A stretch of DNA of 64,000 nt from Squalus acanthias (lineage: Eukaryota). Positions 32,502 through 52,906 of this stretch are shown in pieces. Position 1 is the first letter of the stretch. Each line of letters begins with the position of its first letter. Position numbers and translations under genes: made by a program. The notes below the pieces were generated by a model that was not told where the DNA came from, did not search any database, and saw only the letters and a program-made list of their open reading frames with translations. The DNA lies in assembly GCA_030390025.1 (NCBI GenBank), contig CM059431.1:120902001-120966000 (forward strand). The letters run 5' to 3'.

Positions 32502-32639
32502 TTAGTAGCTGTTTCGCATTTCTCCCTTTCAAACGTTACATTGAACTCGATCATGTTATGATCACTATTGGATAAATGTTCAAACACAGTTAGGCTGTTA
32601 ACTAAATCTGGCTCATTACTCATTACTAAATATATATTA

Positions 32640-33617
32640 ATGATCTAGACAAGGGAACTAGATGTAATATCTCCAAGTTTGCAGACGACACAAAACTGGG
32701 TGGGCGTGTGTGCTGCGAGGAGGATGCCGAGAAACTTCAGGATGATTTGGACAGGTTGGGTGATTGGGCAGAAGCGTGGCAGATGCAATATAACGTGGAT
32801 AAATGCGAGGTTATCCACTTTGGTGTCAAAAACAGAAAGGCAGATTATTATCTGAATGGCAATAGTTTGGGACAAGGGGAAGTGAAACGAGACCTGGGTG
32901 TCCTTGTGCACCAGTCGCTGAAGGTAAGCATGCAGGTGCAGCAGGCGGTTAAGAAGGCAAATGGTATGTTGGCCTTCATAGCGAGAGGGTTTGAGTATAG
33001 GAACAAGGATGTCTTGCTGCAGTTGTACAGGGCCTTGGTGAGACCACACCTTGAGTACTGTGTGCAGTTTTGGTCGCCTTATCTGAGGAAGGATGTTCTT
33101 GCCATGGAAGGAGTTCAGCGAAGATTCACAAGGCTGATACCTGGTATGGCAGGAATGACATATGAAGAGAGATTGGGTCGATTGGGCTTATACTCGCTGG
33201 AGTTTAGAAGAATGAGAGGGGATCTGATTGAAACTTATAAAATTCTGACAGGACAGGATAAACTAGATGCAGGAAGGATGTTCCCGATGGTCGGGGAGTC
33301 CAGAACCAGGGGTCACAGTCTAAGGATAAGGGGTAAGCCATTTAGGACAGAAATGAGGAGGAATTTCTTCACCCAGAGAGTGGTGAACCTGTGGAATTCT
33401 CTGCCACAGAAGGCAGTAGAGGCCAATTCATTAAATAGATTCAAGAAGGAGTTGGATATATTTCTTAAGGCTAAAGGGATCAAGGGATATGGGGAGAAAG
33501 CAGGGACAGGGTACTGAATTTGAATGATCAGCCATGATCGCATCGAATAGCGGAGCAGGCTCGAGGGGCCGAATGGCCTACTCCTGCTCCTATCTTCTAT
33601 GATTCTATGATTCTATG
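32640..33617 (+). mobile_element. Young 5'-truncated CR1 with open RT C-terminus and intact 3' tail
   Basis: SKFADDTKL followed by an uninterrupted 269-aa frame; ends in (ATTCTATG)n. Confidence 0.92.
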
Positions 33618-36439: not shown

Positions 36440-38210
36440 TTTGGACTGTTTTTTTTAATTTTATTGAAATGGTGGCTTGCTGCAATAGATGTGAAACGTT
36501 TTTTAAGTGTGTAGGGAGTGCTGCTGGATGCTTGCAAGGACTCGGATGGTAAATGAAGGCTTTTGAGAAGACAGAACATGCTGCGAATACTCAGCAGGTC
36601 ACGCAGCATCCGTGGAGAGAGAAACAGAGTACACATCTCAGGTCAACATGCTGCCTGACCAACTGAGTATTTCCAGCATTTTATGCTGTCAATTCACATT
36701 GACAGCATCTGTTTGCAGAGGGAAGAGGAAGACACAGAAGAGGAGGAAGCCGAAGAGGAATCAGACGGAAGAATGCATCCCAGACAGCCCCCTTGTGGCT
36801 GGGTTATCCGGGATGGAATCACCTGCCTGCGGTCCCACTGGCTGGGCAGGCTGCCTCTTCTTGTTGACCCACTGGCTGGGCAGGCTGCATTTCTTGGGTG
36901 TGTGAATGAGAAAGGCACAAGGGTGGAGTTGGGCTGACAGGAGGGCAGGAAAGCAAGAGGTGCATGCCAGAAGGGGGATAACGTACGAGGATACCCGCAT
37001 CTTGTATCCTTTCAGCCCCGCCGCTGGCCAAGGGCTCAACCATGCCCCTGCCAAGAATGGCCTGCATCGTCTCCTCCAAGGGGGTGAGGTGAGGCTAGGA
37101 ATGGGAGATGTGCCTTGTGATTGGTGTAGATTGTTGGTAGGTTAGTGATTGGGGGTTGTGCATTGAGCAGTGTGTGAGGCTCGTGTTGCAGTTGGTAAGA
37201 GACGGCTTTTGAAGATGCATTCACTGACCTTGACCAGTGGTCTGAGGTCAAGAAGCTTCTTTGGGCACTGGAGACAGGTGGTGGGGCAACACTACTGGCA
37301 GTGACAGCCTTGGTGATCTGGTCCCACATCATTCTTTCTGGAGAGCCTCCTGGCCCCTGTGGGTAGAGGGCCGCTCTTGCAGTGTTGACCTCTGCACAAA
37401 GCTGGAGTGCTGCATGTGAGACCTTCGGTGCCCCTTCCCTGGCTTGCTGAGGCATTTGTGTTAGTGCTGAGGCAGTTTTCCCATTTGTTGAGGTTGGGAA
37501 GTTTTTGGATGGGAAACCCAGAAGTAAGGGTTTCCTGGCTGTTCTGCAGAATTTAACTGCAGGGCGTCTTTTACATTTTTTCAGTAGGTGTCCTGGCTGT
37601 CTGTTGGGCGGGAAAGCAGCCGGGGAGTGACTGGCAGGCAAGTAGGAGATCCCGGGGGGGCTGGGGGGGATTGGGGGGAGGTGAGGAGTGTCGGAGATCG
37701 TGGGGGTGGGGGTAGTCAGAGATCGCAGGGGGTCAGAGATCGGGGGCTTCGGGGAGACAGAGAACAGGTTGGGGAGTCGGAGATCGAGTGTGGGGCGGGA
37801 GTCGGAGATCGAGGGGTGGTGGTGGAGGGGGAGTTGGAGATCGTGCAGGGAGAGTCGTAAATCTGGGGTTGTGTAAAGAGGTTAACTCATTGGACCGAGT
37901 GGAAACACTCCTGCTCCTCCTGGCCCACAAGCAGTGCTGTAAATGCACTTACCTCATGGATCTGGCCCTTCGCGCATCCTTTTACCACCCTGGTTTCCCA
38001 ATAAAAAAGCCTGTTAAAATAGAGGCACACAGCTTCCACTGACTGACTCGCATCCTGAGAGCGGATTGGTGGCCTACCCCCTGGCCCACCTTCCTTAAAA
38101 CTGGAAATGAGTGAGATTGAGGCGAGTTGGGGTCGTGTTTGAGATTTTTAAAAATTTACTTCCCTCCCACCCACAACCCACCCATCCTTGGTGTTAAACC
38201 TACCCACATG
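36440..38210 (-). mobile_element. Harbinger element remnant with Myb/SANT-like ORF and short GGAGATCG repeat
   Basis: Peptide APKVSHAALQL...MMWDQITKAVTASS; similar to 28480-29530. Confidence 0.6.
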
Positions 38211-38363: not shown

Positions 38364-40011
38364 TGTAAGGGATTCTGACCCTGCGTGTCTCGCAGCCTGT
38401 GAGATTCACGCGGCTCTGTGCAGCCTGTATGTCAGTGCGGGTCTAGGCCTTGTTGCCTGTTCTGGTCTCCAGCCAGTCTGGGAACACTAGACACACCTGT
38501 GAGTGGTTCGAATCACTCGCCCTTACGGTTCTAGACACTGGACTTAGATGCGAGAGCAGTAATGGAGATGAAACTCATGTAGACTCGGTTGAATGGTACG
38601 AAATGGAAAATCTTTATTGCATGATACTTAAGATTATGAAATACATGTCATAAGCACAGATTAATGACAGTACAATCTTACAAGCAGTTATATAGTCGAT
38701 CTTAGGGAAACGAGGAACGAACGGCACATAGTAAATAGGGGCACACATTACAAATATCCTTAATCCTTAAACCCTCCCCTATCAATATCTATCCTAAACT
38801 AGATTCGTAGGATTTCGAGACTCATGCTCACCACTCGTGATAACTCGGAGAAATTCCGAATAGCTGATCGGATGTTTTTCACCGCAGCACCCACGTGTCG
38901 GTCAGGAGATCTCCTGGTCCCACTTGTTTACTTGCTTCTGCTGCTCCGGCTAGCAGGCTGGAACGTCTGCTGTGATGAAGACCTGTGTTGGTTGGTTTAA
39001 CAGGTACTTTTCGAGCACAGTTGTCAATATCCTCGATACGATATGTTTCCTTGCAAGTTCGAAGAAGTCTTCCTGGCAAGGAAAACTTGGCTAATTCGAC
39101 CTACAGGCGCGGTCGGGATTTACTGACCGTGGCGATGGATATGGTCTTCCTCTCTTCTCATCTCATCTCATCTCATCTCATCTCATCTCGGGCCTTTGGT
39201 TCCGCTGCCAGTTACCAACATAGGTCTTCGTTACGCGACACGAGGTAGATCCGAACGGATCAGAAAGTTCAACAGTCCTTTTCAAAGAGGCAACAGGCAA
39301 GCAGGAGCCCAACTACGAGTACACAGGAGCAGCCACGAGGTTACGAATAAGAGCACAGGAGCAGCCACGATGATAAGAAAAAGATGGACGGTTTGGAGCC
39401 TGCAATTATAGTGCAAAATCTTCCGTTTCCCGCCCAACTATAATGTCCATTCTTTTGTTTAGGGTCTGGCGCTCAAATGTCTTGTATGGGTGATCTCCGT
39501 TCTTAATGGGTTTCGGGGCTACTCGTAAATGTCTGAGTACCTGTTAATATTTCTCCCATTGTTAAATCGGTCGGTGTTCTCCCTGGAGGGGTTGTGGGGC
39601 TTCCAAGTGTTTTGTATAACTACCTGCTAACGGCTCTCTCATCGTAGAGTCGTTGGGATTTTACATATTAATGTCTTTTGGATGGGCCCTTGATTACTCG
39701 GTACAATAGCTTTCATTTGTACCTGGGAGACCGATTTCAGTATTTATGTGTATACTGCAAACCCATAATGTCTCGTGTATTATCTTCACTGTGCTGAATC
39801 TTAATCGATCTTGCACAAATGTTTATTGGAACGCCATCTTGTCTGCCTGTTGAAAAGTCTAGAATGTTCTGTCACGAGGTGCGGCGGCCATTTTACAGGC
39901 TGCTTGTGTCCACTTTAAACCTGGCAGCATTCTGCTGAAATAAAAGCTGTTTGAACGAAACTCTGTGTTTTCTCCTTATTAATAAAATCGCGATATATTG
40001 CGAATTCTACA
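38364..40011 (-). repeat. 3' LTR (1648 bp)
   Basis: Differs from the other LTR at only 2 positions I could see (38753 A / 46485 G; 39097 C / 46829 T). Preceded on minus by a purine tract. Confidence 0.97.
38613..38618 (-). terminator. Candidate polyadenylation signal AATAAA in 3' LTR
   Basis: Plus strand tttatt, about 250 nt from the LTR end. Confidence 0.5.
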
Positions 40012-40022: not shown

Positions 40023-40464
40023 TGATGCGAATAACTCCGCTTATCGTATCAAAAATCATAGTGGTGAGCAATATTATCTCGATTTCTCTCCGAATCCAGC
40101 AAATTAATCCCATAAATTTTAACCTAGCTAGGGTCTCTGTGTCGTCCTTATTTCCCAAGAAAATTACATTTTATATCACCGTAGGCATTATTTGCCCTTA
40201 AACTTACACCACTTGTTTTCCTTCCCGGCGTAACCAGGCCGATGTCTCTCGTATCACCTGTATATTCATCTTTTATTCAGGGAAAGGAAAAACAAAACTC
40301 AAAACCAAAACAATCAATTCTAACTGTAACACCATCACCAAAATAATCAACACCAACTCTTAAAACATGTCGAGTTCCCAACGTATTTACAATCTCTGAA
40401 AAATCATGATCGAGTACAAACTTCCGCGACGCACGTGGCGAGCGGGAGTGACGCCATTTTCCGA

Positions 40465-42816
40465 TTACACGGTGCTTTCATCGTGCACGCGCACGTAACG
40501 TTCTCGCCACTCTCCCGTGTTTTCATGCTTGGTGAGGCGCTTGTCTCTTTTACAATGTACGACCAATAGGTACACTACAATAAAAACTTGGCATACGACT
40601 AAAATGTGGGAGGCTATTCTGATCCATGAAGGCACTTCAATATTAGTGAACAGATTCCACCACGGTGGAACTACTATATCCAAAATGTCTGTTCCTATTT
40701 CGACAGTTTTCTGCTCTAATGTGTAAAAATGTTTCTGTGACACCGCGACGGCTTTCAGAAGCTTGGTGAGGTGTACAGGGAGAGGGGGAATGAGGTATCC
40801 GAAATGCGCGACGAATCGCTGCAAGTCGGTGAAATTCTCTTTTACTGTGAGATGAACAGTGGATGGTTCAGGGATTGGGATAATTCGCTGTTGTGCTACT
40901 TGAACTTCCGCCCTGGGTTTGAAACAGAAACTGCTGTCACTCACCGGACACCAGCTACGGTTTCCATGCTGGTAGTGTTGTGCTGCAGTGGTAACACAAT
41001 ATGTTCCACCCCCGATGTATGCTACCTGCGGAGGCACATGATCTTGTGCCATTGCCTCCATGGTGCAATTCATGGACTTGGCGCCAGCCGTTCTGAACCC
41101 GCACTGTGGTGTTAAAAAGGCATTCAAGTGCTGGGGACACAGTATTATGTGTGCTGCCCTGCCACGACAACCAGAGAGATCTGTACCTGTCATCGTTTGC
41201 TCCCAGCGGATGACGTAAGGTGGAACCGCTGCATAACGAATGTGGGCTCCCCCCTGAATGACACCAATGTTCTCTACCCGATACACCGGGGCGGGCTTTG
41301 CTGTGTCGCCCAAAACCGGCATGCGTAATACTATTCCCATAATAGTATGGTTTGAACGTCCGCAGTCCACGGGGACTGGGTAAGCTTCTGAAGCTAGCCT
41401 GAGCTGGCACGGACTTAATGCGTTCTGAAAAGGGTGGAGCGCCCGCAGGTGTTTGTTATTTATCCAGGACGGAACCAAACCTTGTTTTAAATCCTCCAAA
41501 TTACTGCGGCCCTCGCCCAGTAACCACGCCCCGTAAAGCACGCACACCTCGTTCTGCGCAGCTTGATCGGATGCATTCCGATCTTCCCTAATCAGGGCAT
41601 TTACCGTCTTTGCATGTTTCTCCAACTCTGCTATAATTTCCTTTAAATGGAGAGTCATGGCTTGGTCCTCGTGTAAACCCGACCCTACCACTTTATTCTC
41701 ATCTGTTAGAATGTCTTTTAATTGTGTCTTTAAACCATTAATCTGGGTCTGCAGCTCCACACTGTCTAGAGCGTTGACCACAGATGTACCCGTGTTAAAA
41801 GCGGTGAACGCATCGTTCACCAAACCCCTTCTTTGCCTCCCTGCTTGATTCAAAACTTCCTGTGGTGCGGTGTACAAACTTGTTTTATCAATTTCCGCGA
41901 AATCGAATTCGTAAAATTGTCTGAACATCTTGGTCAACAGGACCTGGTACAACTGTTCCGTCTTTTTGGGGCACCACTCTGGTAACCGCACCTCGGTGAG
42001 ATTTAAAATCACCGAGGCCACCGCGTAATGTACCCCCTGAAATAGTATCTGGTCTGTGGGGACCAGTACCAAACCATTCCCGGGTCCCTTACTAGTTTTA
42101 GGGCACCCTTCTTCCTCAGCTAGAACCACCGGAATCGTGGGCGGGGCTTTGCGTGGGCGCGTAATGAGCTCAGTGGCATTTACTGGGATCGGGGAGAATG
42201 GGGCTCCGCACCCCCTGGTGCTCGCATCCCACCTCATCCCCTGTCCGTTATCCTGCCATTGATTAATGAAAAATATGGAGATGCCTTTGGGGCAAACGTA
42301 CTTTGACCCCCACATACATACATAAATTCCCTCATCCGGTTCCCACCATTTGTCCCAACAGACTTTCACTTGTCCGTTTGTCCCCGTAATTGTCCGATGG
42401 GTATTATTACCCAGTCGTTCCCACTCGACCGAAGAGTTCCTCATAGTTTTGCTCAGCTTTCGCAGCCACCACCATCGGCTCAATGGGACCTTCCCACTAC
42501 AAGTCAAACAAATCCGTTTGCCGACGGTGACGCTGATCCTGGGTGCGATGATCCTTACTTTGGGGCACAGTAAAGAAGTCTCTTTGTAGGCAAACCCCGA
42601 TGTGCTAGAATACTCCGTTGAGTTCGTTCCCAGCCATCCTGGCCACCTTCCCTTGTGGAAATAGGTGCTGGTCTCCTCTGCCTCCCGTCTTCCGGTCCCA
42701 TCCACCGCGATGGGGGCCGTGTCCCCGGAACATCCAAACACCACGACATCCTTGGTGCGGCCTCGATAGGCCAATCCACATCCGATTGCCACGAGCAATA
42801 CTAGAATTCGTTCCAT
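40465..42816 (-). CDS. env: Envelope glycoprotein (783 aa from likely start MERILVLL): signal peptide, Ig-like domain, furin site RQRR, fusion peptide and heptad repeat, Cys-rich region, TM anchor
   Basis: Hydrophobic signal MERILVLLVAIGCGLA. RQRR|GLVND at 41827-41838. About 10 N-x-S/T sequons. TM IASHILVVCQVFIVVYLLVV and a YVRV tail motif. The frame is open further upstream to 42999. Confidence 0.9.
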   Translation of the reverse strand: MERILVLLVAIGCGLAYRGRTKDVVVFGCSGDTAPIAVDGTGRREAEETSTYFHKGRWPGWLGTNSTEYSSTSGFAYKETSLLCPKVRIIAPRISVTVGKRICLTCSGKVPLSRWWWLRKLSKTMRNSSVEWERLGNNTHRTITGTNGQVKVCWDKWWEPDEGIYVCMWGSKYVCPKGISIFFINQWQDNGQGMRWDASTRGCGAPFSPIPVNATELITRPRKAPPTIPVVLAEEEGCPKTSKGPGNGLVLVPTDQILFQGVHYAVASVILNLTEVRLPEWCPKKTEQLYQVLLTKMFRQFYEFDFAEIDKTSLYTAPQEVLNQAGRQRRGLVNDAFTAFNTGTSVVNALDSVELQTQINGLKTQLKDILTDENKVVGSGLHEDQAMTLHLKEIIAELEKHAKTVNALIREDRNASDQAAQNEVCVLYGAWLLGEGRSNLEDLKQGLVPSWINNKHLRALHPFQNALSPCQLRLASEAYPVPVDCGRSNHTIMGIVLRMPVLGDTAKPAPVYRVENIGVIQGGAHIRYAAVPPYVIRWEQTMTGTDLSGCRGRAAHIILCPQHLNAFLTPQCGFRTAGAKSMNCTMEAMAQDHVPPQVAYIGGGTYCVTTAAQHYQHGNRSWCPVSDSSFCFKPRAEVQVAQQRIIPIPEPSTVHLTVKENFTDLQRFVAHFGYLIPPLPVHLTKLLKAVAVSQKHFYTLEQKTVEIGTDILDIVVPPWWNLFTNIEVPSWIRIASHILVVCQVFIVVYLLVVHCKRDKRLTKHENTGEWRERYVRVHDESTV

Positions 42817-42856: not shown

Positions 42857-43105
42857 GCCTCGCAAGAGTCTCTGGCTTTTGTGAAGGGTGAGCGGGTCCC
42901 CTGACCTCGCCTCACGTAAACTTCCACGTTCGCTGTATAAACTTTAACTAAACCTAAATTTACAGCTCCCATCATTTTATCGTTTTCTGTTAAAAACACT
43001 ACAAACTTAACCTTATTAAAAAACTATAAACTTAACCTTGAACTATTAACTTAAAACTTAAAAACTAATAACTTTACAGTGCCGCCCGTTCTCAGGGCGG
43101 CCCCT

Positions 43106-44266
43106 TTAAATTCTGAGAAGGCTGCTGCGAGCTCTTCCCGACGGTGGGAGGGCACTGACCCTTCCCTCTGATCTGCCGCAGCCTGTTGCTGCACTGACCC
43201 TTCCCTCTGATCTGCCGCAGCCTGTTGCTGCTGCGATGTGGCCGGCCTGTATCTGGGTTATCTTAACCTTAACTCTACGCCTTGGGGCAGTCTGGGGACA
43301 TGACCACATCCTCCTGGGCTGGGGTTCTCTACTTGACCTACGGGGAGTTGCTATGGGCGGGGGTTCCGTGACGGACGGACCGGGTTCCGAGACTTCCATC
43401 GGGATGACCTGGGGTTCCACCACAGTCGCTGGCTCCGCCTCCGCTGACTCCGCCTCCCTAACCTCGGGGCTTGCAGTTTGTGGCTCCGCCCTGCTCGGCC
43501 CAGCAGGCGGCCCTTCACTCGTGATCTCTGCCTCCCCCAAGGACGGGACGTTCAAAGCGGGCGGCCACATCTCTGGGAGCCACACCGGTACTCTCTGTGC
43601 TCCCATAGCGGCTGGCCCTGCCTCCCCTAGCTCCTCCCTCCTGTCTTCGGGACCTGCAGCTCGTGTGTCCACCCTGTGTGGATCTCTACCTGCAGCCCCC
43701 GTCCCCTCCATATCGTAAAAGGGACCGTTCCTCCGAAACCACCCGTCGTCATCACTATCCTCATCTGCACTATCCTCATCTGACCCGGGTACCCTGAATT
43801 CTTCCTCATCTAACCCCCAATTCCAGAAAAACGCTGCATGATCGTCCGGGATGTCCCTTCCCCTGATGCAAGCTGCTATGCCTGCCTGTGTGCCTTGTGG
43901 TCCTACCTGGGGCTGTGCTTTCCCACTGGCGGGATTTACCCCTGTAGTTTTCCCTTGCGCACCTGGCTGGTACAGTTTGCATTGGTTTACATCCTCATAC
44001 TCCCGGCTTTTGGCTACCCTGTAGACTGCTTTTATCTCACTAAGCTGCGCTTCTAGCCTGAGCACGTCTAACTTTCCCATTGATCGGGCGTTCTCCTCCC
44101 GCAGGGCCTGCTCTCTAAGCTGCCCTTCCAGCCCATCTATTTTCCCTATTAAGCGGGCGTTCTCCTCCCGCAAGGCCTGCTCTTTTAACCTGGCCTCCTC
44201 ACCGCAGACCCCCTCCTGTGCGTGTCTTTTAAAAGGACACAGGTAGGCAGGCTGCGTGGGCTCTAG
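43106..44266 (-). CDS. ORF X: unknown ~386-codon frame in phase with the NC ORF after its TGA (coiled coil, acidic tract, Pro/Glu-rich tail)
   Basis: The 31 sense codons between the TGA at 44267-44269 and the listed ORF start at 44173 are open and in frame. No ATG near its 5' end. No DTG/DSG, YxDD or HHCC motifs. Confidence 0.65.
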   Translation of the reverse strand, partial: LEPTQPAYLCPFKRHAQEGVCGEEARLKEQALREENARLIGKIDGLEGQLREQALREENARSMGKLDVLRLEAQLSEIKAVYRVAKSREYEDVNQCKLYQPGAQGKTTGVNPASGKAQPQVGPQGTQAGIAACIRGRDIPDDHAAFFWNWGLDEEEFRVPGSDEDSADEDSDDDGWFRRNGPFYDMEGTGAAGRDPHRVDTRAAGPEDRREELGEAGPAAMGAQRVPVWLPEMWPPALNVPSLGEAEITSEGPPAGPSRAEPQTASPEVREAESAEAEPATVVEPQVIPMEVSEPGPSVTEPPPIATPRRSSREPQPRRMWSCPQTAPRRRVKVKITQIQAGHIAAATGCGRSEGRVSAATGCGRSEGRVSALPPSGRARSSLLRI

Positions 44267-44626
44267 TCATTGGGTACTATTAGACGGTCCTGCGGCACCT
44301 ACGGGGCCGGTTGCGACCGCCACCTGTCCACGTGCACTCAAGATTAGATTGCGCATGGCTCCTAACACTACTTCGACGTCGTCGGGAGGGGTGGGTGCCT
44401 TAGCTTCCTTAGCCGGGACAGGCGCCTGGGCTCGGACCGCGGGATTTTTATCCTTGGAATCCTTCCAAGGGTTCCTGCAATGCTTGCGCCAGTGCCCTGT
44501 CTTCCCACACCCGTAACAAGCATTACCTGCCTGTGGGGCGCGATTACCCTCCTGATGCCACTCTCTTTGATACGGGGCTGCGGGTCGTACCTCATGTACT
44601 CTTCCCTTAAGGGGACGTGTTGCCAT
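44267..44626 (-). CDS. gag: Gag C-terminal nucleocapsid portion with CCHC zinc knuckle, in +1 frame relative to upstream gag
   Basis: CYGCGKTGHWRKHC (C-X2-C-X4-H-X4-C) at 44477-44518. Overlaps the end of the gag ORF by 20 nt. Confidence 0.88.
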   Translation of the reverse strand: MATRPLKGRVHEVRPAAPYQREWHQEGNRAPQAGNACYGCGKTGHWRKHCRNPWKDSKDKNPAVRAQAPVPAKEAKAPTPPDDVEVVLGAMRNLILSARGQVAVATGPVGAAGPSNSTQ

Positions 44627-46091
44627 ACCCCTTATATTGCGATATCCTAACGTGAGTCAAGACCGACTCTTCCGTAATGTTGGGGTCATTGGGAATGTTG
44701 GGGTCATTGGGATCAAACCATGCTTTTGCCTGCTCTCTGACGGCTGGTAAACTGTTGGCTATTATGCACCTAAGCCAATGAGTTAAAGCTAAGCCTTCCA
44801 CATCTTCGCGCTCGGGCGCACCTGGACAGCTGCGCTCATATACTGGCCACAGCCTGTCGGCAAAAACCTTCGGGGGTTCTCCCTCCATCTGCACTGTCTG
44901 TCCCACTCTAGCAAACGGACCTTCATCGTTCGCCCCCAACACTTCCAGGACCTCATTCTTTAATTCCTCATAACTCTTGGTTCCCCTCTTGCTCTCGCCT
45001 GAGAGACACTGAAGGACCGAGCTGTCTAATGAGAACAGCAGCATTTTTGCTGTTTCCCCATCATCGCAGCCGTTAATGGCTGCGGCTTGCTCAACTTCTC
45101 TGAAATGTACGGAAGGGTCGTCTGACTCGGTCAGCTTCCGTACGTGATTTATCATAGCTCTCAGCTGATGTGAACTGTGAGGCAGCACCAGCTGTCCGAG
45201 GAGATCCCCCGGCTCTTCCCCACCGTTTCTGCTTGGACCCCTTTTAATACCCGTTACTGGATACAACGGTCCCTTTCCTACTTCTTTTTCAATGGGCTCT
45301 TTCGTTTCTTCCATTGCTTCCTCCCTTACCCAGGTTTCCGAATAGCTGGGTGGCGCGGAGGGCGCAGTGGCTACTACTTCTTCTGCTTTACTTGGTGGGG
45401 ATTTTTTAAACTTCTCACTTGCTAGCGGCTGGTGTGCTGACGGACTGATCAGGCACACCATGCCGTTCGCTTTGTTTACGGCCTTCTTGAGGTGCTCTAT
45501 CTCCCTTTGGCAGGCGCTATGGTCGGCTCCCTCAAACTTATCCTCAAGGGCCAACTTATATGCCGCCCTAACCCCCGTTAAGCTCTCTTCTTGAGTTCTT
45601 ATCTGGGCAGCTTGGCGGTTACATCTTTCCTTTAATCTGCTCTCATTCAACTTCGCCTCAGTGACCTGGCACTCGAGATAATCTATCCTTGTTTTAAGGT
45701 GACTGGAGACTGCCTGGCTTTCTTGGTGCAACTCATTTAAATTCTTAATGAGCACCTCCCCTCCAGAAACCTTCTCATCCATTTCTCCCTCTAAATGACT
45801 GATTCGAGCTACTAGCGCTGTAATGGTCTGGTTTGAAATCTGAACCTGCCTTTTGTAACACATAAGCCAGACTGCTTTCTCAAGTGTCTTTCTATGTTCT
45901 TTACTATCTGTCCACCTTTCGGCTGCCTCTAGCGGGCTTTTATCCGCTAACAATTCACTTATCCACTTCTTAGTTAGATTAACCTTTCCGAACACATAAT
46001 CTGCTATCTTTTCCTGCATAACATTTCGTACAGTCATTCCAAAGTCTAACACACTACCCTCTCGCTGCCAGTGTCCTGCCGCGGTCGCCAT
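44607..46091 (-). CDS. gag: Gag (494 aa; N-terminal domain, long coiled coil, PSAPPSY late-domain motif, capsid-like helical region)
   Basis: First ORF after the PBS, with its ATG overlapping the PBS. Heptad-rich segment; APSAPPSY at 45342-45362; a CCHC knuckle follows in the adjacent frame. Confidence 0.85.
   Translation of the reverse strand: MATAAGHWQREGSVLDFGMTVRNVMQEKIADYVFGKVNLTKKWISELLADKSPLEAAERWTDSKEHRKTLEKAVWLMCYKRQVQISNQTITALVARISHLEGEMDEKVSGGEVLIKNLNELHQESQAVSSHLKTRIDYLECQVTEAKLNESRLKERCNRQAAQIRTQEESLTGVRAAYKLALEDKFEGADHSACQREIEHLKKAVNKANGMVCLISPSAHQPLASEKFKKSPPSKAEEVVATAPSAPPSYSETWVREEAMEETKEPIEKEVGKGPLYPVTGIKRGPSRNGGEEPGDLLGQLVLPHSSHQLRAMINHVRKLTESDDPSVHFREVEQAAAINGCDDGETAKMLLFSLDSSVLQCLSGESKRGTKSYEELKNEVLEVLGANDEGPFARVGQTVQMEGEPPKVFADRLWPVYERSCPGAPEREDVEGLALTHWLRCIIANSLPAVREQAKAWFDPNDPNIPNDPNITEESVLTHVRISQYKGYGNTSP
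46073..46090 (-). promoter_or_regulatory. Primer-binding site complementary to tRNA-Arg(TCG) 3' end
   Basis: Minus strand TGGCGACCGCGGCAGGAC lies 5 nt after the 5' LTR. It is the complement of ...GTCCTGCCGCGGTCG-CCA, which I recall as the 3' end of vertebrate tRNA-Arg-TCG. Confidence 0.88.
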
Positions 46092-46095
46092 TTTC

Positions 46096-47743
46096 TGTAA
46101 GGGATTCTGACCCTGCGTGTCTCGCAGCCTGTGAGATTCACGCGGCTCTGTGCAGCCTGTATGTCAGTGCGGGTCTAGGCCTTGTTGCCTGTTCTGGTCT
46201 CCAGCCAGTCTGGGAACACTAGACACACCTGTGAGTGGTTCGAATCACTCGCCCTTACGGTTCTAGACACTGGACTTAGATGCGAGAGCAGTAATGGAGA
46301 TGAAACTCATGTAGACTCGGTTGAATGGTACGAAATGGAAAATCTTTATTGCATGATACTTAAGATTATGAAATACATGTCATAAGCACAGATTAATGAC
46401 AGTACAATCTTACAAGCAGTTATATAGTCGATCTTAGGGAAACGAGGAACGAACGGCACATAGTAAATAGGGGCACACATTACAGATATCCTTAATCCTT
46501 AAACCCTCCCCTATCAATATCTATCCTAAACTAGATTCGTAGGATTTCGAGACTCATGCTCACCACTCGTGATAACTCGGAGAAATTCCGAATAGCTGAT
46601 CGGATGTTTTTCACCGCAGCACCCACGTGTCGGTCAGGAGATCTCCTGGTCCCACTTGTTTACTTGCTTCTGCTGCTCCGGCTAGCAGGCTGGAACGTCT
46701 GCTGTGATGAAGACCTGTGTTGGTTGGTTTAACAGGTACTTTTCGAGCACAGTTGTCAATATCCTCGATACGATATGTTTCCTTGCAAGTTCGAAGAAGT
46801 CTTCCTGGCAAGGAAAACTTGGCTAATTTGACCTACAGGCGCGGTCGGGATTTACTGACCGTGGCGATGGATATGGTCTTCCTCTCTTCTCATCTCATCT
46901 CATCTCATCTCATCTCATCTCGGGCCTTTGGTTCCGCTGCCAGTTACCAACATAGGTCTTCGTTACGCGACACGAGGTAGATCCGAACGGATCAGAAAGT
47001 TCAACAGTCCTTTTCAAAGAGGCAACAGGCAAGCAGGAGCCCAACTACGAGTACACAGGAGCAGCCACGAGGTTACGAATAAGAGCACAGGAGCAGCCAC
47101 GATGATAAGAAAAAGATGGACGGTTTGGAGCCTGCAATTATAGTGCAAAATCTTCCGTTTCCCGCCCAACTATAATGTCCATTCTTTTGTTTAGGGTCTG
47201 GCGCTCAAATGTCTTGTATGGGTGATCTCCGTTCTTAATGGGTTTCGGGGCTACTCGTAAATGTCTGAGTACCTGTTAATATTTCTCCCATTGTTAAATC
47301 GGTCGGTGTTCTCCCTGGAGGGGTTGTGGGGCTTCCAAGTGTTTTGTATAACTACCTGCTAACGGCTCTCTCATCGTAGAGTCGTTGGGATTTTACATAT
47401 TAATGTCTTTTGGATGGGCCCTTGATTACTCGGTACAATAGCTTTCATTTGTACCTGGGAGACCGATTTCAGTATTTATGTGTATACTGCAAACCCATAA
47501 TGTCTCGTGTATTATCTTCACTGTGCTGAATCTTAATCGATCTTGCACAAATGTTTATTGGAACGCCATCTTGTCTGCCTGTTGAAAAGTCTAGAATGTT
47601 CTGTCACGAGGTGCGGCGGCCATTTTACAGGCTGCTTGTGTCCACTTTAAACCTGGCAGCATTCTGCTGAAATAAAAGCTGTTTGAACGAAACTCTGTGT
47701 TTTCTCCTTATTAATAAAATCGCGATATATTGCGAATTCTACA
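46096..47743 (-). repeat. 5' LTR (1648 bp)
   Basis: Direct repeat of 38364-40011 at offset 7732. On minus it reads TGTAGAA...CTTACA and is followed by GAAAA and the PBS. Confidence 0.97.
47130..47170 (-). promoter_or_regulatory. Candidate LTR promoter (GC/E2F-like box TGGGCGGGAAA plus TATAAT)
   Basis: Minus strand gttgggcgggaaacgg...gcactataattgca, followed about 25 nt later by a pyrimidine-rich start-like sequence. A second TATA candidate, TATATAA, lies near 46420. Confidence 0.4.
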
Positions 47744-48470
47744 CCTTCTAATATCTTCTTTGGTTGGTCACCAATTTTGTTATGGTTACGCCTTTGCAAA
47801 GCACATTGGGCCATTTTTCTATCTTAACGGCGCTATATAAATGCGAGGTGTTCTTGCTCTGGCGTGGTGGGAGGCTGGTTTGAGTACATAATTCACCACA
47901 TGGTAAACGAATGATTTCAGCTGTACTGCTGCAGAAGTATGCACATATCCAGAGAAGAGCACAATCTATCAATTGTTAAAAATCCAGGGACTTGTACATG
48001 GCTGGAGTCAAGAGTTCAACCATTTGTGCCAGCTGTGAAAATACTAATTCATGCTGCAATTAAGATAAATTGAGAGAAGTACTGAGAATTAAGACAGCAT
48101 AGAAAATTGGCACTTGAAAATACTTCCCAGTGATCTCTTGAACAAGGCCAACTGCAGCAAGCTGACCATCTGCTCCCATCAGTGGAATTGCTGCTGTGGA
48201 AGTTAAATTCTAATGGGGCACGAAGAGAAGGCTGTTCTCATCCTATCTGTAACTATCTCTTGTGAAAAATTAACCTCCCGCCCCCATGCCTTGAAATAGT
48301 GATTCCAGCAGAATGGCCCTAATATTTACTCAGGACGTGAAGAGAGCAGGCGGGGTGGGGCTGGGGGAAGATTTCCAGACAGGAAACCCAGAAGTAAAGA
48401 GTTTCACGGACATCCTGCTGAACTTTTTCAGAGATCAGGGTGGTGTGGGAGCTGGCAAACAGTGATAGAT

Positions 48471-51400
48471 GGAGTCGGAGATCGGGGGTGGAGGGGGAGA
48501 TCGGGGGTGAGTCGGAGATGGAGGGGGGATTCGGAGATCGAGGGGGGATTCGGAGACCGAGGGGGGAGTCGGAGATCGCGGGGGAGTCGGAGATCGGGGG
48601 GGAGTCGGAGATCGAGGGTGGCAGTCGGAGATCGAGGGTGGAGTCGGAGATCGAGGGTGGAGTCGGAGATCGAGGGTGGTGTCGGAGATCGAGGGTGGAG
48701 TCGGAGATCGATGGTGGAGTCGGAGATCGAGGGGGTGTCGGAGATCGGGGGGGTGTCAGAGAACGGGTAGGAGGGGGAGATCGGGGGTGGAGGGTGAGAT
48801 CGAGGGGCAGTCGGAGATCGGGGACAGTTGGAGATCGAGGGGCAGTCGGAGATCGGGGGAGGGGAGATCGAGGGGGGAGTCGGAGATCGAGGGGGGAGTC
48901 AGAGATCGGGGTGGAGGGGAGATCGAGGGGGGAGTCGGAGATCGAGGGGGGAGTCGGAGATCGAGGGGAGGAGTCGGAGATCGAGGCGGGAGTCGGAGAT
49001 CAGGGGGGAGTCGGAGATCGAGGGGGGAGATCGAGGGGGGTGTCGGAGATCGAGGGTGTAGTCGGAGATCGATGGTGGAGTCGAAGATCGAGGGGGGTGT
49101 CGGAGATCGGGGGGGTGTCAGAGATCGGGTAGGAGGGGGAGATCGAGGGTGAGATCGAGGGGCAGTCGGAGATCGAGGGGCAGTCGGAGATCGGGGACAG
49201 TTGGAGATCGAGGGGCAGTCGGAGATCGGGGGGAGGGGAGATCGCGGGGGGAGTCGGAGATCGAGGGTGGAGGGGGTGATCGAGGGTGGAGGGGGTGATC
49301 GAGGGGGGAGGGGGAGATCGAGGGGGGAGGGGGAGATCGTGGGGGGAGTCGGAGATCGGGGGGCTGTCGGAGATCGAGGGGAGGAGTCGGAGATCGAGTG
49401 GGAGAGTCGGAGATTGAGGGAGGAGTCGGAGATCGAGGGTGGAGTCGGAGATCGGGGGGGAGGGAGAGATCGGGTGGCTGTCGGATATCGAGGGTGGAAT
49501 CGGAGATCGAGGGGGGAGTTGGAGATCGAGGGGGGAGAGGGAGATCGGGGAGATTCGGAGATCGAGGGGAGAGGGGGAGATCGAGGGTGGAGTCGGAGAT
49601 CGGGGGGGGAGGGAGAGATCGGGTGGCTGTCGGATATCGAGGGTGGAATCGGAGATCGAGGGGGGAGTTGGAGATCGAGGGGGGAGAGGGAGATCGGGGA
49701 GATTCGGAGATCGAGGGGAGATCGGGGGGAGTCGGAGATCAAGGGGGGAGTCGGAGATCGAGGGGGGAGGGGGAGATCAAGGGGGGAAGGGGAGATCGGG
49801 GGGAAGTCGGAGATCGAGGGGAGATCGGGGGAAGTCGGAGATCAAGGGGGGAGTCGGAGATCGAGGGGGGAGGGGGAGATCGAGGGGGGAGTCGGAGATC
49901 GAGGGGGGAGGGGGAGATTGAGGGGGGAGGGGGAGATCGAGGGGGGAGTCGGAGACCGAGCGGGGAATCGGAGATCGAGGGGGGAGGGGGAGATCGAGGG
50001 GGAGGGGCAGATCGAGGGGGGAGTCGGAGATCGAGGGGGGAGTCGGAGATCGAGGGGGGAGTCGGAAAACGAGGGGTGAGGGGGAGATCGGGGGCGAGTT
50101 GGAGATTGAGGGGCGAGTCGGAGATTGAGGGGCGAGTCGGAGATCGAGGGGGGAGTCGGAGATCGAGGGTGGAGTCGGAGATTGAGGGGGGGAGTCGGAG
50201 ATCGAGGGTGGAGTCAGAGATCGAGGGGGGGAGTCGGAGATCGGGGGGGAATCGGAGATCGAGGGGGGGAGTCGGAGATCGGGGGGGAGGGAGAAATCGG
50301 GTGGCTGTCGGAGATTGAGGGTGGAATCGGAGATCGAGGGGGGTGTTGGAGATCGAGGGGGGAGGGGGAGATCGGGGGGCATCGGAGATCAAGGGGGGAG
50401 GGGGAGATCGAGGGTGGAGTCGGAGATCAGGGAGGAGGGGGAGATCGGGGGCTGTCGGAGATCGAGGGTGGAATCGGAGATCGAGGGGGGAGTTGGAGAT
50501 CGAGGGGGGAGAGGGAGATCGGGGGGATTCGGAGATCGAGGGGGGAGGGGGAGATCGGGGGGAGGGGAGATCGGGGGGAGTCGGAGATCGAGGGGGGAGG
50601 GGGAGATTGCGGGGGGTGAATCGGAGATCGAGGGGGGAAGGGGAGATAGAGGGGGGAGTCGGAGATTGAGGGGGGAGTCGGAGATCGAGGGGAGGAGTTG
50701 GAGATCGAGGGGGGAGGGGGAGATCGAGGATGGAGTCGGAGATCGAGGGGGGAGGGGGAGATCGAGGATGGAGTCGGAGATCGAGGGGGAAGGGGAGATC
50801 GAGGGGGGAGTCGGAGATCGAGGGGGGAGTCGGAGATCGAAGGGAGGAGTCGGAGATCGAGGGGGGGAGTCGGAGATTGAGGTGGGAGGCTGAGATCAAG
50901 GGGGGAGTCAGAGATTGGGGGCGAGTCGGAGATCGGGGGTGAGGGGGAGATCGAGGGGGGAGGGGTAGATTGGGGGGGAGTCGGAAATCGAGGGGGGAGG
51001 GGGAAATCGGGGGGGAGTCGGAGATCAAAGGGGGAGTCGGAGATCGAGGGGGGAGGGGGAGATCGAGGGAAGTCGGAGATCGGGGGGGAGTCAGAGATCT
51101 GGGGGGAGTCGGAGATCGAGGGGGGGAGTCGGAGATCGAGGGGGGGAGTCGGAGATCGAGGGGCGAGTCGGAGATCGAGGGGGGGAGTCGGAGATCGAGG
51201 GTGGAGGGGGAGATCGAGGGGAGTCGGAGATCGAGGGGTGATGGGGAGATCGAGGGCGGAGTTGGAGATCGGGGGGGAGTCGGAGATCGAGGGGGAAGTC
51301 GAAGATCGAGGGGGGAGGGGGAGATCGAGGGGGGAGGGGGAGATCGAGGGGGGAAGGGGAGATCGAGGGGGGAGTCGGAGGTCGAGGGGGCAGTCGGAGA

Positions 51401-52186
51401 TCGAGTGGGGAGTCGGAGATCGGGCGGGGGAGTCGGAGATTGGGGGGGCAGTCGGAGATCGGGGGGGAGTCGGAGATCGGGGGGAGAGGGGGAGATCAAG
51501 GGGGAGTCGGAGATTGAGGGGGAGTCGGAGATTGAGGGGGAGTCGGAGATCGAGGGGGAGTCGGAGATCGGGGGGAGTCGGAGATCGGGGGGGGAGTTGG
51601 AGATCGGGGACGGAGTCGGAGATCGAGGGGGGAGTCGGAGATCGGGGTTTGTCGGAGATCGAGGGGGTGTCGGAGATTTGTGGGCTGTCGGAGATCGGGG
51701 GGGAGTCGGAGATCGGGGGTGGAGGGGGAGTCGGAGATCGAGGGGGGAGTCGGAGATTTAGGGGGTTTGTCGGAGATCGAGGGGGGAGTCGGAGATCGAG
51801 GGGGGAGTCAGAGATCGAGGGGGGAGTCGGAGATAGTGGGGGGGAGTCGGAGATCGAGGGGGGAGTCGGAGATCGGGGTTTGTCGGAGATCGAGGGGGTG
51901 TCGGAGATTTGTGGGGTGTCGGAGATCGGGGGGGAGTCGGAGATCGTGGGTGGAGGGGGAGTCGGAGATCGAGGGGGGAGTCGGAGATTTAGGGGGTTTG
52001 TCGGAGATCGAGGTGGGAGTCGGAGATCGAGGGGGGAGTCAGAGATCGAGGGGGGAGTCGGAGATAGTGGGGGGGAGTCGGAGATCGAGGGGGGAGTCGG
52101 AGATAGTGGGGGGAGTCGGAGATCGAGGGGGGAGTCGGAGATTGGAGGGAAGTCGGAGATTGTGGGCGGAGTCGGAGATCGGGGGG
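48471..52186 (+). repeat. G-rich minisatellite, unit ~GGAGTCGGAGATCGAGGGG (variable G runs)
   Basis: Roughly 200 copies of the GAGATCG core; strongly strand-asymmetric. Confidence 0.97.
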
Positions 52187-52432
52187 TAGACAGTGTTCAG
52201 AGGTGGTTGGAAGAGTCGGAGATTGTGGACGGTAGGTGGAGTTCAGCTGGTTGTGCGAGGTGGGGGTGGGTCAACCAAACACAGGATGTGTTAAGAGGTT
52301 GGCTTTTTGAGCTTCAGGAAACACTCCCGCTCCTCCTGCCCCATAAGCTACTTAACTCATCGAGCTGGGCTTTCTTCTTTTACCTGCTGTGCTTCCCAAG
52401 CCCCGGGAAACCCGGCCTCCTTGGGTTAAAAA

Positions 52433-52906
52433 TTAAAACCTTTTAAAATGCACATTGAGGGAGTGAAAACCCTTGCGGTTCACAAACACACCTGGGTGAT
52501 GTGGGGGTACTTTGATGGCCACATGTGTGCACTTGATGAAGCCCTGCTCCTGTGGGAAGACAGACAGAGCTGCAAAGCCGTGCACCCGCTCAGTAACACT
52601 GGCTTCATCAGTGGCAAAGTTGACATAATTGGCTGACTTGTGAAACATGGCATTGGTCACCTGGGTAATGCATTTGTGGGCAGCCCATTGCGAGATCCTG
52701 CAAATGTCTGCTGGAAATCCCTGGAAGGAGCCTGAGGCGAAAAAGTGGAGGGCGCTGGTGACTTTGACAGCCACTGGTAATGTGTGTCCACCTGCTCCTC
52801 TGGGCAGCAGGTCTTGTTCCAGCAAGTTACAAATATGTGTGATGACCTGGCGCAATAGCCTGAGCCTCCTTCGGCACTGCTGCTCAGTCATGTTGAGGAA
52901 GCTCAT
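52433..52906 (-). pseudogene. Harbinger (HARBI1-like) transposase fragment
   Basis: [27 protein letters not shown] and [12 protein letters not shown]; truncated at the satellite side. Confidence 0.85.

Follow-up and report, generated by a model that had tools for sequence, protein, structure and literature searches.

Envelope proteins (Env) resembling viral fusion (F) proteins are already known from retroelements, namely from lokiretroviruses, foamy viruses and errantiviruses, and the fold alone would therefore not be news. Foamy virus Env contains an F core and is classed together with F and spike as subclass Ib (PMC11468914), and Wang and Han (PMC9040795) preferred independent Env origins for lokiretroviruses and canonical retroviruses. 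Here we describe an env gene in a 64,000-nt stretch of Squalus acanthias DNA (assembly GCA_030390025.1, contig CM059431.1, positions 120,902,001 to 120,966,000), hereafter the window; all features of the provirus that contains it are read on the minus strand, which the original prediction had not given, and positions are those of the window. We consider it likely that this locus holds the intact env of a very young, pol-less endogenous retrovirus (ERV) of cartilaginous fishes, whose predicted class Ib product likely descends from an old line of retroviral Envs.

The env frame is open from stop to stop over 852 aa (43023-40465) and over 783 aa (40465..42816) from the methionine at 42816, which precedes a hydrophobic signal; at this composition, the chance of a 783-codon open frame is about 4e-18. 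A furin-type motif, RQRR (residues 327-330, 41838-41827), is followed by GLVNDAF and opens a post-cleavage part of 453 aa with 12 Cys, seven of them in residues 550-631. This part comprises a predicted fusion peptide (41761..41826), which is conserved in relatives and modelled at a low predicted local distance difference test score (pLDDT); a heptad repeat A (41542..41769) that ends at a conserved Cys (residue 425); a Cys-rich beta core with near-invariant Cys, which corresponds to F domains I-III (40867..41541; pLDDT mostly 70-96) and is matched by Foldseek and VIA; a heptad repeat B (40657..40782), seen in sequence and model; and a transmembrane (TM) helix (40552..40623; hydropathy peak 2.55 near residues 732-755) followed by a 28-residue tail. 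In the best register, the hydrophobic share of the heptad a/d positions reaches 0.57 in residues 350-425 and 0.75 in residues 679-720. The original prediction, made from the letters of the stretch, had listed RQRR, a heptad, a subunit of about 450 aa with a Cys-rich region, a second heptad and a TM helix, all of which are present. It had also held that CX6CC and an immunosuppressive peptide are absent and that the subunit is not of the gamma type (class Ia), which combines a short TM subunit, CX6CC and an immunosuppressive domain, and our data agree: CX6CC occurs neither in this Env nor in any of the 17 relatives checked, the subunit is long, and the two Pfam matches of Env are both non-significant (E 0.058 and 0.49) and belong neither to a retroviral TM nor to an immunosuppressive-domain family. 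A single CXXC (CLTC) sits inside the Ig-like part described below. Searches of Pfam and PDB with the single Env sequence returned nothing significant.

The predicted structure is more informative. An AlphaFold model of Env has high confidence at residues 241-300 and through most of 421-650, and all 35 Foldseek matches listed against PDB (ranks 1-50) are paramyxovirus or pneumovirus F proteins (best E 1.5e-9). With VIA, model residues 245-671 align to postfusion Nipah F (Z 11.9, root-mean-square deviation (rmsd) 5.5 over 292 residues). A wide VIA search of 48,161 chains placed 14 F proteins and two foamy Env chains in the top 16, followed by unrelated chains with Z of 5.0 or less. The two foamy chains (Z 8.2, rmsd 12.7 over 290 residues; Z 7.9, rmsd 5.3 over 271) tie with prefusion F of human parainfluenza virus 3 (hPIV3), human metapneumovirus (hMPV) and respiratory syncytial virus (RSV), and lie below postfusion F of Newcastle disease virus (NDV; Z 10.8). 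A language-model atlas ranks Fusion_gly first (0.94), together with Baculo_F and Gypsy Env clusters, and the 50 BFVD matches listed, in which glycoproteins of RNA viruses and baculoviruses dominate, include Env of walleye dermal sarcoma virus (WDSV; row 19, E 4.7e-8), walleye epidermal hyperplasia virus 1 (WEHV-1; row 21, 7.7e-8) and feline foamy virus (2.7e-4). Gamma-type, HIV and influenza fusion proteins are absent from the structure matches listed, which leaves room for remote similarity. Three structure searches and the language-model search thus agree on the F-protein architecture that had been proposed for this Env, the fold itself being a prediction.

The F-like fold is already under way upstream of the cleavage site, from about residue 238-245 onwards, and since the alignment begins at model residue 245, an F2-like part should lie upstream of the furin-type site. 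This segment (residues 238-330, 41827..42105; pLDDT 87-95 over 241-300) ends at RQRR and aligns to the start of F and to the N-terminal surface part (N-SU) of foamy Env. The model has the nested domain I-III core, with beta sheet and helical bundle spanning both cleavage products, that characterizes class Ib, and the sequence has the corresponding furin-type site, fusion peptide, two heptads and C-terminal TM helix. The likeness to Mononegavirales F (PF00523) by which lokiretroviral Envs are recognized is seen in structure and atlas, but not in the Pfam sequence search. The original prediction had also set F proteins against orthoretroviral or spumaviral Envs, one of which as best structural match was to speak against it. 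The best match is indeed a viral F protein, but the comparison does not discriminate: foamy Env is itself F-like, so that a spumaviral Env cannot serve as the opposite of F.

The further proposal that env was acquired independently is not supported. A profile of the family, run against PDB sequences, finds foamy Env first (E 4e-4 and 1.3e-3) and an F protein in none of its 15 rows, a second profile search gave a similar result, the WDSV and WEHV-1 Env models match, and the family is old across sharks, rays, frogs and the coelacanth. The homologue search with the post-cleavage part matched 40 representatives, of which 30 were looked up: 18 come from cartilaginous fish, three from frogs and one from the coelacanth, the rest being without named host. 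The named hosts are eight shark and ray genera (including the skate match of a separate search), two frog genera and the coelacanth. Nearest to this Env are a skate protein (about 76% identity over 391 residues, N-terminal extension included) and sawshark proteins (60-74%), which by themselves point to a cartilaginous-fish host. In a 20-row tree that includes 19 of the relatives, single shark genera are split among several deep lineages, and the frog sequences form a clade. Scans of viral and metagenome contigs returned no relative of this env, and one candidate relative, P0031, was discarded as a spurious bacterial repeat match. Three shark gene models (P0002, P0012 and P0026) join env pieces to cadherin-related, Niban-like and fbxo15 host genes; these fusions may be annotation artefacts or exonisation.

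A recent and independent capture of env from a paramyxovirus, pneumovirus or other negative-strand RNA virus would account for the paramyxovirus F proteins at the top of the structural scores, for Fusion_gly as best atlas match and for the RNA-virus glycoproteins in the top BFVD rows. Yet identity to F is just 6-17%, the sequence profiles find foamy Env and no F protein, and the family branches deeply: one shark genome can hold several of its lineages, and the frog members form a clade. The foamy profile match, the broad and old distribution and the likeness to lokiretroviral Env, whose published Loki-Bsp representative has, by eye, the same motif order through the core, together make a recent mononegavirus capture unlikely, and we give it only a small chance. 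An old retroviral inheritance may in turn reflect one ancestral class Ib Env for all retroviruses, or several old gains.

Which retroviral backbone carried this Env is a separate question, and a possible, though not favoured, answer is that cartilaginous fishes harbour a true lokiretrovirus (lokiortervirus), missed by reverse transcriptase (RT) screening, whose Env gained an N-terminal module. Motif order and Cys spacing resemble those of Loki-Bsp Env by eye, an integrase-tail motif at 43989 resembles lokiretroviral integrase ends, the N-terminal coiled coil of Gag has a counterpart in the loki-related BHIKHARI, and pol-less relatives of lokiretroviruses are known. On the other hand, the lokiretroviral RT screen (PMC7947760) was positive in none of six cartilaginous-fish genomes, Chiloscyllium punctatum and Rhincodon typus included, and relatives of this Env occur in both of these species. 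Moreover, four lokiretroviral Env heads start the F core right behind the signal peptide, a position from which it is separated here by about 220 residues. A whale-shark relative, P0018, combines an RT-end-like stretch and RNase H (E 3.9e-5) with a piece of this Env, and its RT-end motif is by eye closer to snakehead retrovirus (SnRV) and gammaretroviruses than to lokiretroviruses; P0018 had no match in PDB at E 0.01. The backbone of the family is probably SnRV-like, judging from these motifs. Separately, the frog relatives are probably not the published Loki-Xtr Env, as four short motif probes of the supplement were empty and the visible gene start differs.

Nor do we place the element among the foamy viruses. 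The F scaffold of Spumaretrovirinae accommodates a receptor-binding domain (RBD) ahead of the furin site, but here the F2-like part reaches RQRR within about 90 residues. Foamy viruses are not known to have a CCHC knuckle in Gag or an in-frame gag stop; the gag of this element has a weak CCHC match (E 0.016), and the atlas lead to foamy Gag scores 0.81 only. The knuckle and the stop also argue against this env being the missing Env of the shark and frog foamy-like ERVs described in PMC5512871. We assign the element to neither group, lokiretroviruses or foamy viruses, and in design its Env works like those of both.

A wider scenario, which we hold as a tentative idea, is that F-type Env is ancestral in retroviruses and was kept in lokiretroviruses, foamy viruses, walleye epsilonretroviruses and a shark and frog lineage on an SnRV-like backbone, gamma-type Env being a later replacement; the present family would then be a recently active, pol-less satellite with a selected Env and an N-terminal Ig module that serves attachment much as in a coronavirus spike, spread by enveloped particles. 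The model matches to WDSV and WEHV-1 suggest that epsilonretrovirus Env belongs to class Ib. TM-scores of the walleye Env models against the present F-like model are low (0.13 and 0.24). We found no description of this shark env family or of an F-like epsilonretrovirus Env in the literature searched; work on foamy ERVs of cartilaginous fish may bear on novelty.

Upstream of the F core, about 220 residues intervene after the signal peptide, and within them residues 88-167 (42316..42555) are probably an Ig-like domain of V-set type, as matches of Pfam, profile and model suggest. Pfam Ig_3 gives E 0.086 in this Env and 0.0027 in relative P0047; seven of the eight profile matches of the extension are Ig domains (E 0.11-0.91); and a poor model (mean pLDDT 37.6) retrieves mostly Ig domains among 50 VIA rows (Z 3.6-4.7), a match that is a lead only. 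The module would presumably bind a receptor; IgV-like RBDs are known in gamma-type Env (bioRxiv 2024.03.17.585361). Across the family (P0007, P0016, P0029, P0009, P0037, P0034) N-terminal modules are Ig-like, Cys-rich and non-Ig, or missing, and these sequences suggest module swapping on a common F core.

The provirus that carries env is very young. Its long terminal repeats (LTRs), of 1648 bp each (5' LTR 46096..47743, with TG...CA ends and TATA-like and AATAAA motifs near 46425 and 46350; 3' LTR 38364..40011), are 99.9% identical with mismatches at 2 of 1648 positions (47743-46096 against 40011-38364), which corresponds to about 0.3-2.8 million years by the two rates quoted in PMC4422223. 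Both flanks carry the target-site duplication CCTT, a purine-rich tract lies just upstream of the 3' LTR, and a stretch resembling a primer-binding site (PBS; TGG..., 46072..46095), recognized from its letters alone, lies directly inside the 5' LTR and overlaps the first gag ATG; together these are the marks of an endogenous LTR provirus. The window holds no tRNA gene. A flank contig of run X1 has 150 unaligned letters at the expected LTR start and is likely an empty, insertion-free allele of the site. In the same run, contig depth is about 1e5 inside the provirus and 12.5 on the flank, figures that express abundance and not copy number; the env family is abundant.

This copy is unable to replicate alone, as pol is absent and gag is broken. 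The gag gene (44610..46091) encodes an N-terminal coiled coil and a capsid-like part, and a frame change before the nucleocapsid part (44267..44656), which contains one CCHC zinc knuckle (zf-CCHC E 0.016) in another frame, breaks it. Gag, its capsid part included, has no significant match in Pfam or PDB, and weak family leads came only from the language-model atlas (0.81-0.84). Longer Gag relatives (866-2470 aa) were absent among 8000 candidates, Gag proteins of similar length lying outside that search. In three runs, contigs that span the break have gaps when compared with the window, and the break is therefore probably not common to all copies of the family. The nucleocapsid part ends at UGA-CUAG (44267-44260). 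In alphaviruses, UGACUA serves as the type II context for readthrough, whereas the retroviral junctions listed in PMC13517186 have other contexts. A hairpin 3' of the stop (z -2.3) was not counted as a readthrough element, since its pairing partly involves the inserted stretch discussed next.

At the position of pol lies an open frame of 386 codons (43106..44266), delimited from the open reading frame list, Pfam and contig loose ends, in which no RT, RNase H or integrase core was found. Its parts are probably a handful of codons from the start of the protease, a stretch of about 245 bp that is unrelated to pol (44234-43990) and a low-complexity part resembling an integrase tail. On either side of this unrelated stretch, contigs have loose ends, at 44235 in run X8 and at 43989 in runs X1 and X8, which read by eye as protease start and integrase end; pol-bearing relatives should hence exist, pol having been replaced in this copy. 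The upstream joint is bridged exactly, with zero differences, by a contig of run X9 from another organism, and in run X1 the stretch is covered as deeply as the rest of the provirus, which indicates that the pol-less layout is a family trait. The stretch keeps the frame open, contains an 86-bp internal repeat (77% identity) and has no second copy in the window.

Is Env still of use to this family? Of the 15 env differences between copies that were listed, ten are silent, against an expected fraction of about 0.23-0.31 (P 0.0004-0.004), a rough test given that 40 of 709 rows were shown and were selected by the tool; elsewhere, four of five listed differences are silent in gag and none of four in the pol-replacing frame. 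This bias suggests that Env was used during the recent spread of the family and, if env is under purifying selection, that the spread went via enveloped particles. With an open frame, conserved Cys and silent-biased differences, it is plausible that Env may still be a functional fusogen. It is also possible, though less likely in our view, that env is an idle passenger of a pol-less family that multiplies inside cells: so young a copy would keep its frame open by default, and no env splice joint was found among the 15 of 41 joints listed, nor any RNA-certified run with this env, which is evidence neither way. Against a passenger speak the ten silent changes and the identity to the skate relative, which extends into the N-terminal extension. 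Two runs guessed to be RNA, which may contain DNA, cover 29 of 30 bins but leave out the unique flank.

Env sequences almost the same as this one (0.57-0.84 of sampled words) occur in 20 runs from 10 studies under six organism labels, which may reflect either close kinship or movement from one species to another. A host-co-opted fusogen or restriction factor, comparable to syncytin, might be read from this occurrence, from the open env frame next to a broken gag and from the silent-biased differences. However, with 99.9% LTR identity, a site likely empty in another individual and an abundant family, the conservation belongs to the family and not to the locus, and co-option here strikes us as very improbable.

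If Env indeed serves the family, a spliced mRNA would be translated into a precursor with a signal peptide; a candidate splice acceptor (T-rich tract plus AG, 42985..43060) was read from the sequence, with in-frame ATGs at 42975 and 42972 downstream. The precursor would form trimers, and furin would cleave it at RQRR. Its N-terminal product would consist of a receptor-binding extension with the probable Ig domain and the F2-like piece, and a bond between Cys282 and Cys425, which we assume by analogy with F proteins, would presumably tie it to the F1-like subunit of 453 aa. Upon triggering, heptad A would extend, the fusion peptide insert and heptad B fold back into a six-helix bundle. To be copied, the family itself would likely depend on pol-bearing relatives that act in trans and probably have an SnRV-like backbone. 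The in-frame ATGs 53 codons upstream of the signal peptide (42975-42816) could give a cytoplasmic leader as in foamy viruses, and relatives P0016 and P0037 also begin with a polar leader.

Several points weigh against our reading of an inherited retroviral class Ib Env. The AlphaFold model was built from a 44-row alignment of many fragments and reaches a mean pLDDT of 61.9 and a predicted TM-score (pTM) of 0.46, the structural rmsd is large owing to conformation, and the putative fusion peptide is only mildly hydrophobic (mean 0.68). In structure, Env is matched best by viral F proteins and not by retroviral Envs, and BFVD gives its top rows to glycoproteins from insect RNA viruses, baculovirus, fish filovirus and abalone herpesvirus, so that the direction of descent is not fixed; the structural ranking of F above foamy Env likewise cautions against over-reading the foamy link. 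As to lineage, the SnRV-like assignment relies on short motifs that were compared by eye and come from a single chimeric gene model. The likeness of the integrase-tail motif to lokiretroviral integrase ends, equally by eye, points elsewhere. The roughness of the selection test is to be added.

Some further features of the window deserve mention. Several AA(A/G)ATGGC motifs, which we take to resemble the YY1 site, occur at 46095, at 40461 and in both LTRs, one of them overlapping the PBS-like stretch and the gag ATG. A long G-rich tandem array of 19-bp units extends over 48300-52500, with a short, inverted-orientation-neutral copy across the provirus at 37650-37830; the array gives rise to spurious long open reading frames. 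A LINE reverse-transcriptase fragment, presumably of CR1/L2 type, lies at 32630-33517, and many copies are present in the window.

Compared with described systems, the element shares with lokiretroviruses (PMC7947760 and PMC9040795) an LTR element with gag and an F-like env, an R-X-K/R-R site, fusion peptide, coiled coil and TM helix. It differs in the N-terminal residues with their probable Ig domain, in being pol-less with an in-frame UGA after gag, and in a PBS-like sequence unlike the visible one of Loki-Bsp and Loki-Sri. Foamy Env gp130 (PDB 8RM0, 8RM1 and 8OZH; PMC11468914) likewise has the class Ib core and a long TM subunit, and is the best profile match. Its RBD separates the F2-like part from the furin site as an insert, whereas the shark Env carries its extra module at the N-terminus, as does coronavirus spike; the shark gag, with knuckle and in-frame stop, sets the two further apart.

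The F proteins of paramyxoviruses and pneumoviruses (hPIV3, NDV, Nipah, RSV, hMPV) share the predicted fold over Env residues 245-715 and the F2/F1 layout, but differ by the low identity noted above, by the retroviral context and more polar fusion peptide of the shark protein, and by its built-in N-terminal module, which takes the place of a separate attachment protein. WDSV and WEHV-1 resemble it in the fold of their Env models and in stop readthrough after gag; their Env entries are longer (1159-1317 aa) and the junction stop, where given, is UAG. To SnRV the likeness is in the RT-end motif of P0018, seen by eye. Baculovirus F and the F-type Env of errantiviruses have the fold class in common with the shark Env but invertebrate hosts, and this Env has no significant Pfam match to Baculo_F or Gypsy, one relative having a single weak match (E 0.0011).

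An F-type Env common to foamy viruses, walleye epsilonretroviruses and the shark lineage would, if true, speak for a single ancient class Ib Env. The shark Env would also add a retroviral class Ib layout in which the attachment module is N-terminal, next to the inserted module of foamy viruses and the lokiretroviral Envs seen so far, which have none. Abundant ERV families usually keep pol and lose env; the shark family did the reverse, in that env was kept and pol was lost.

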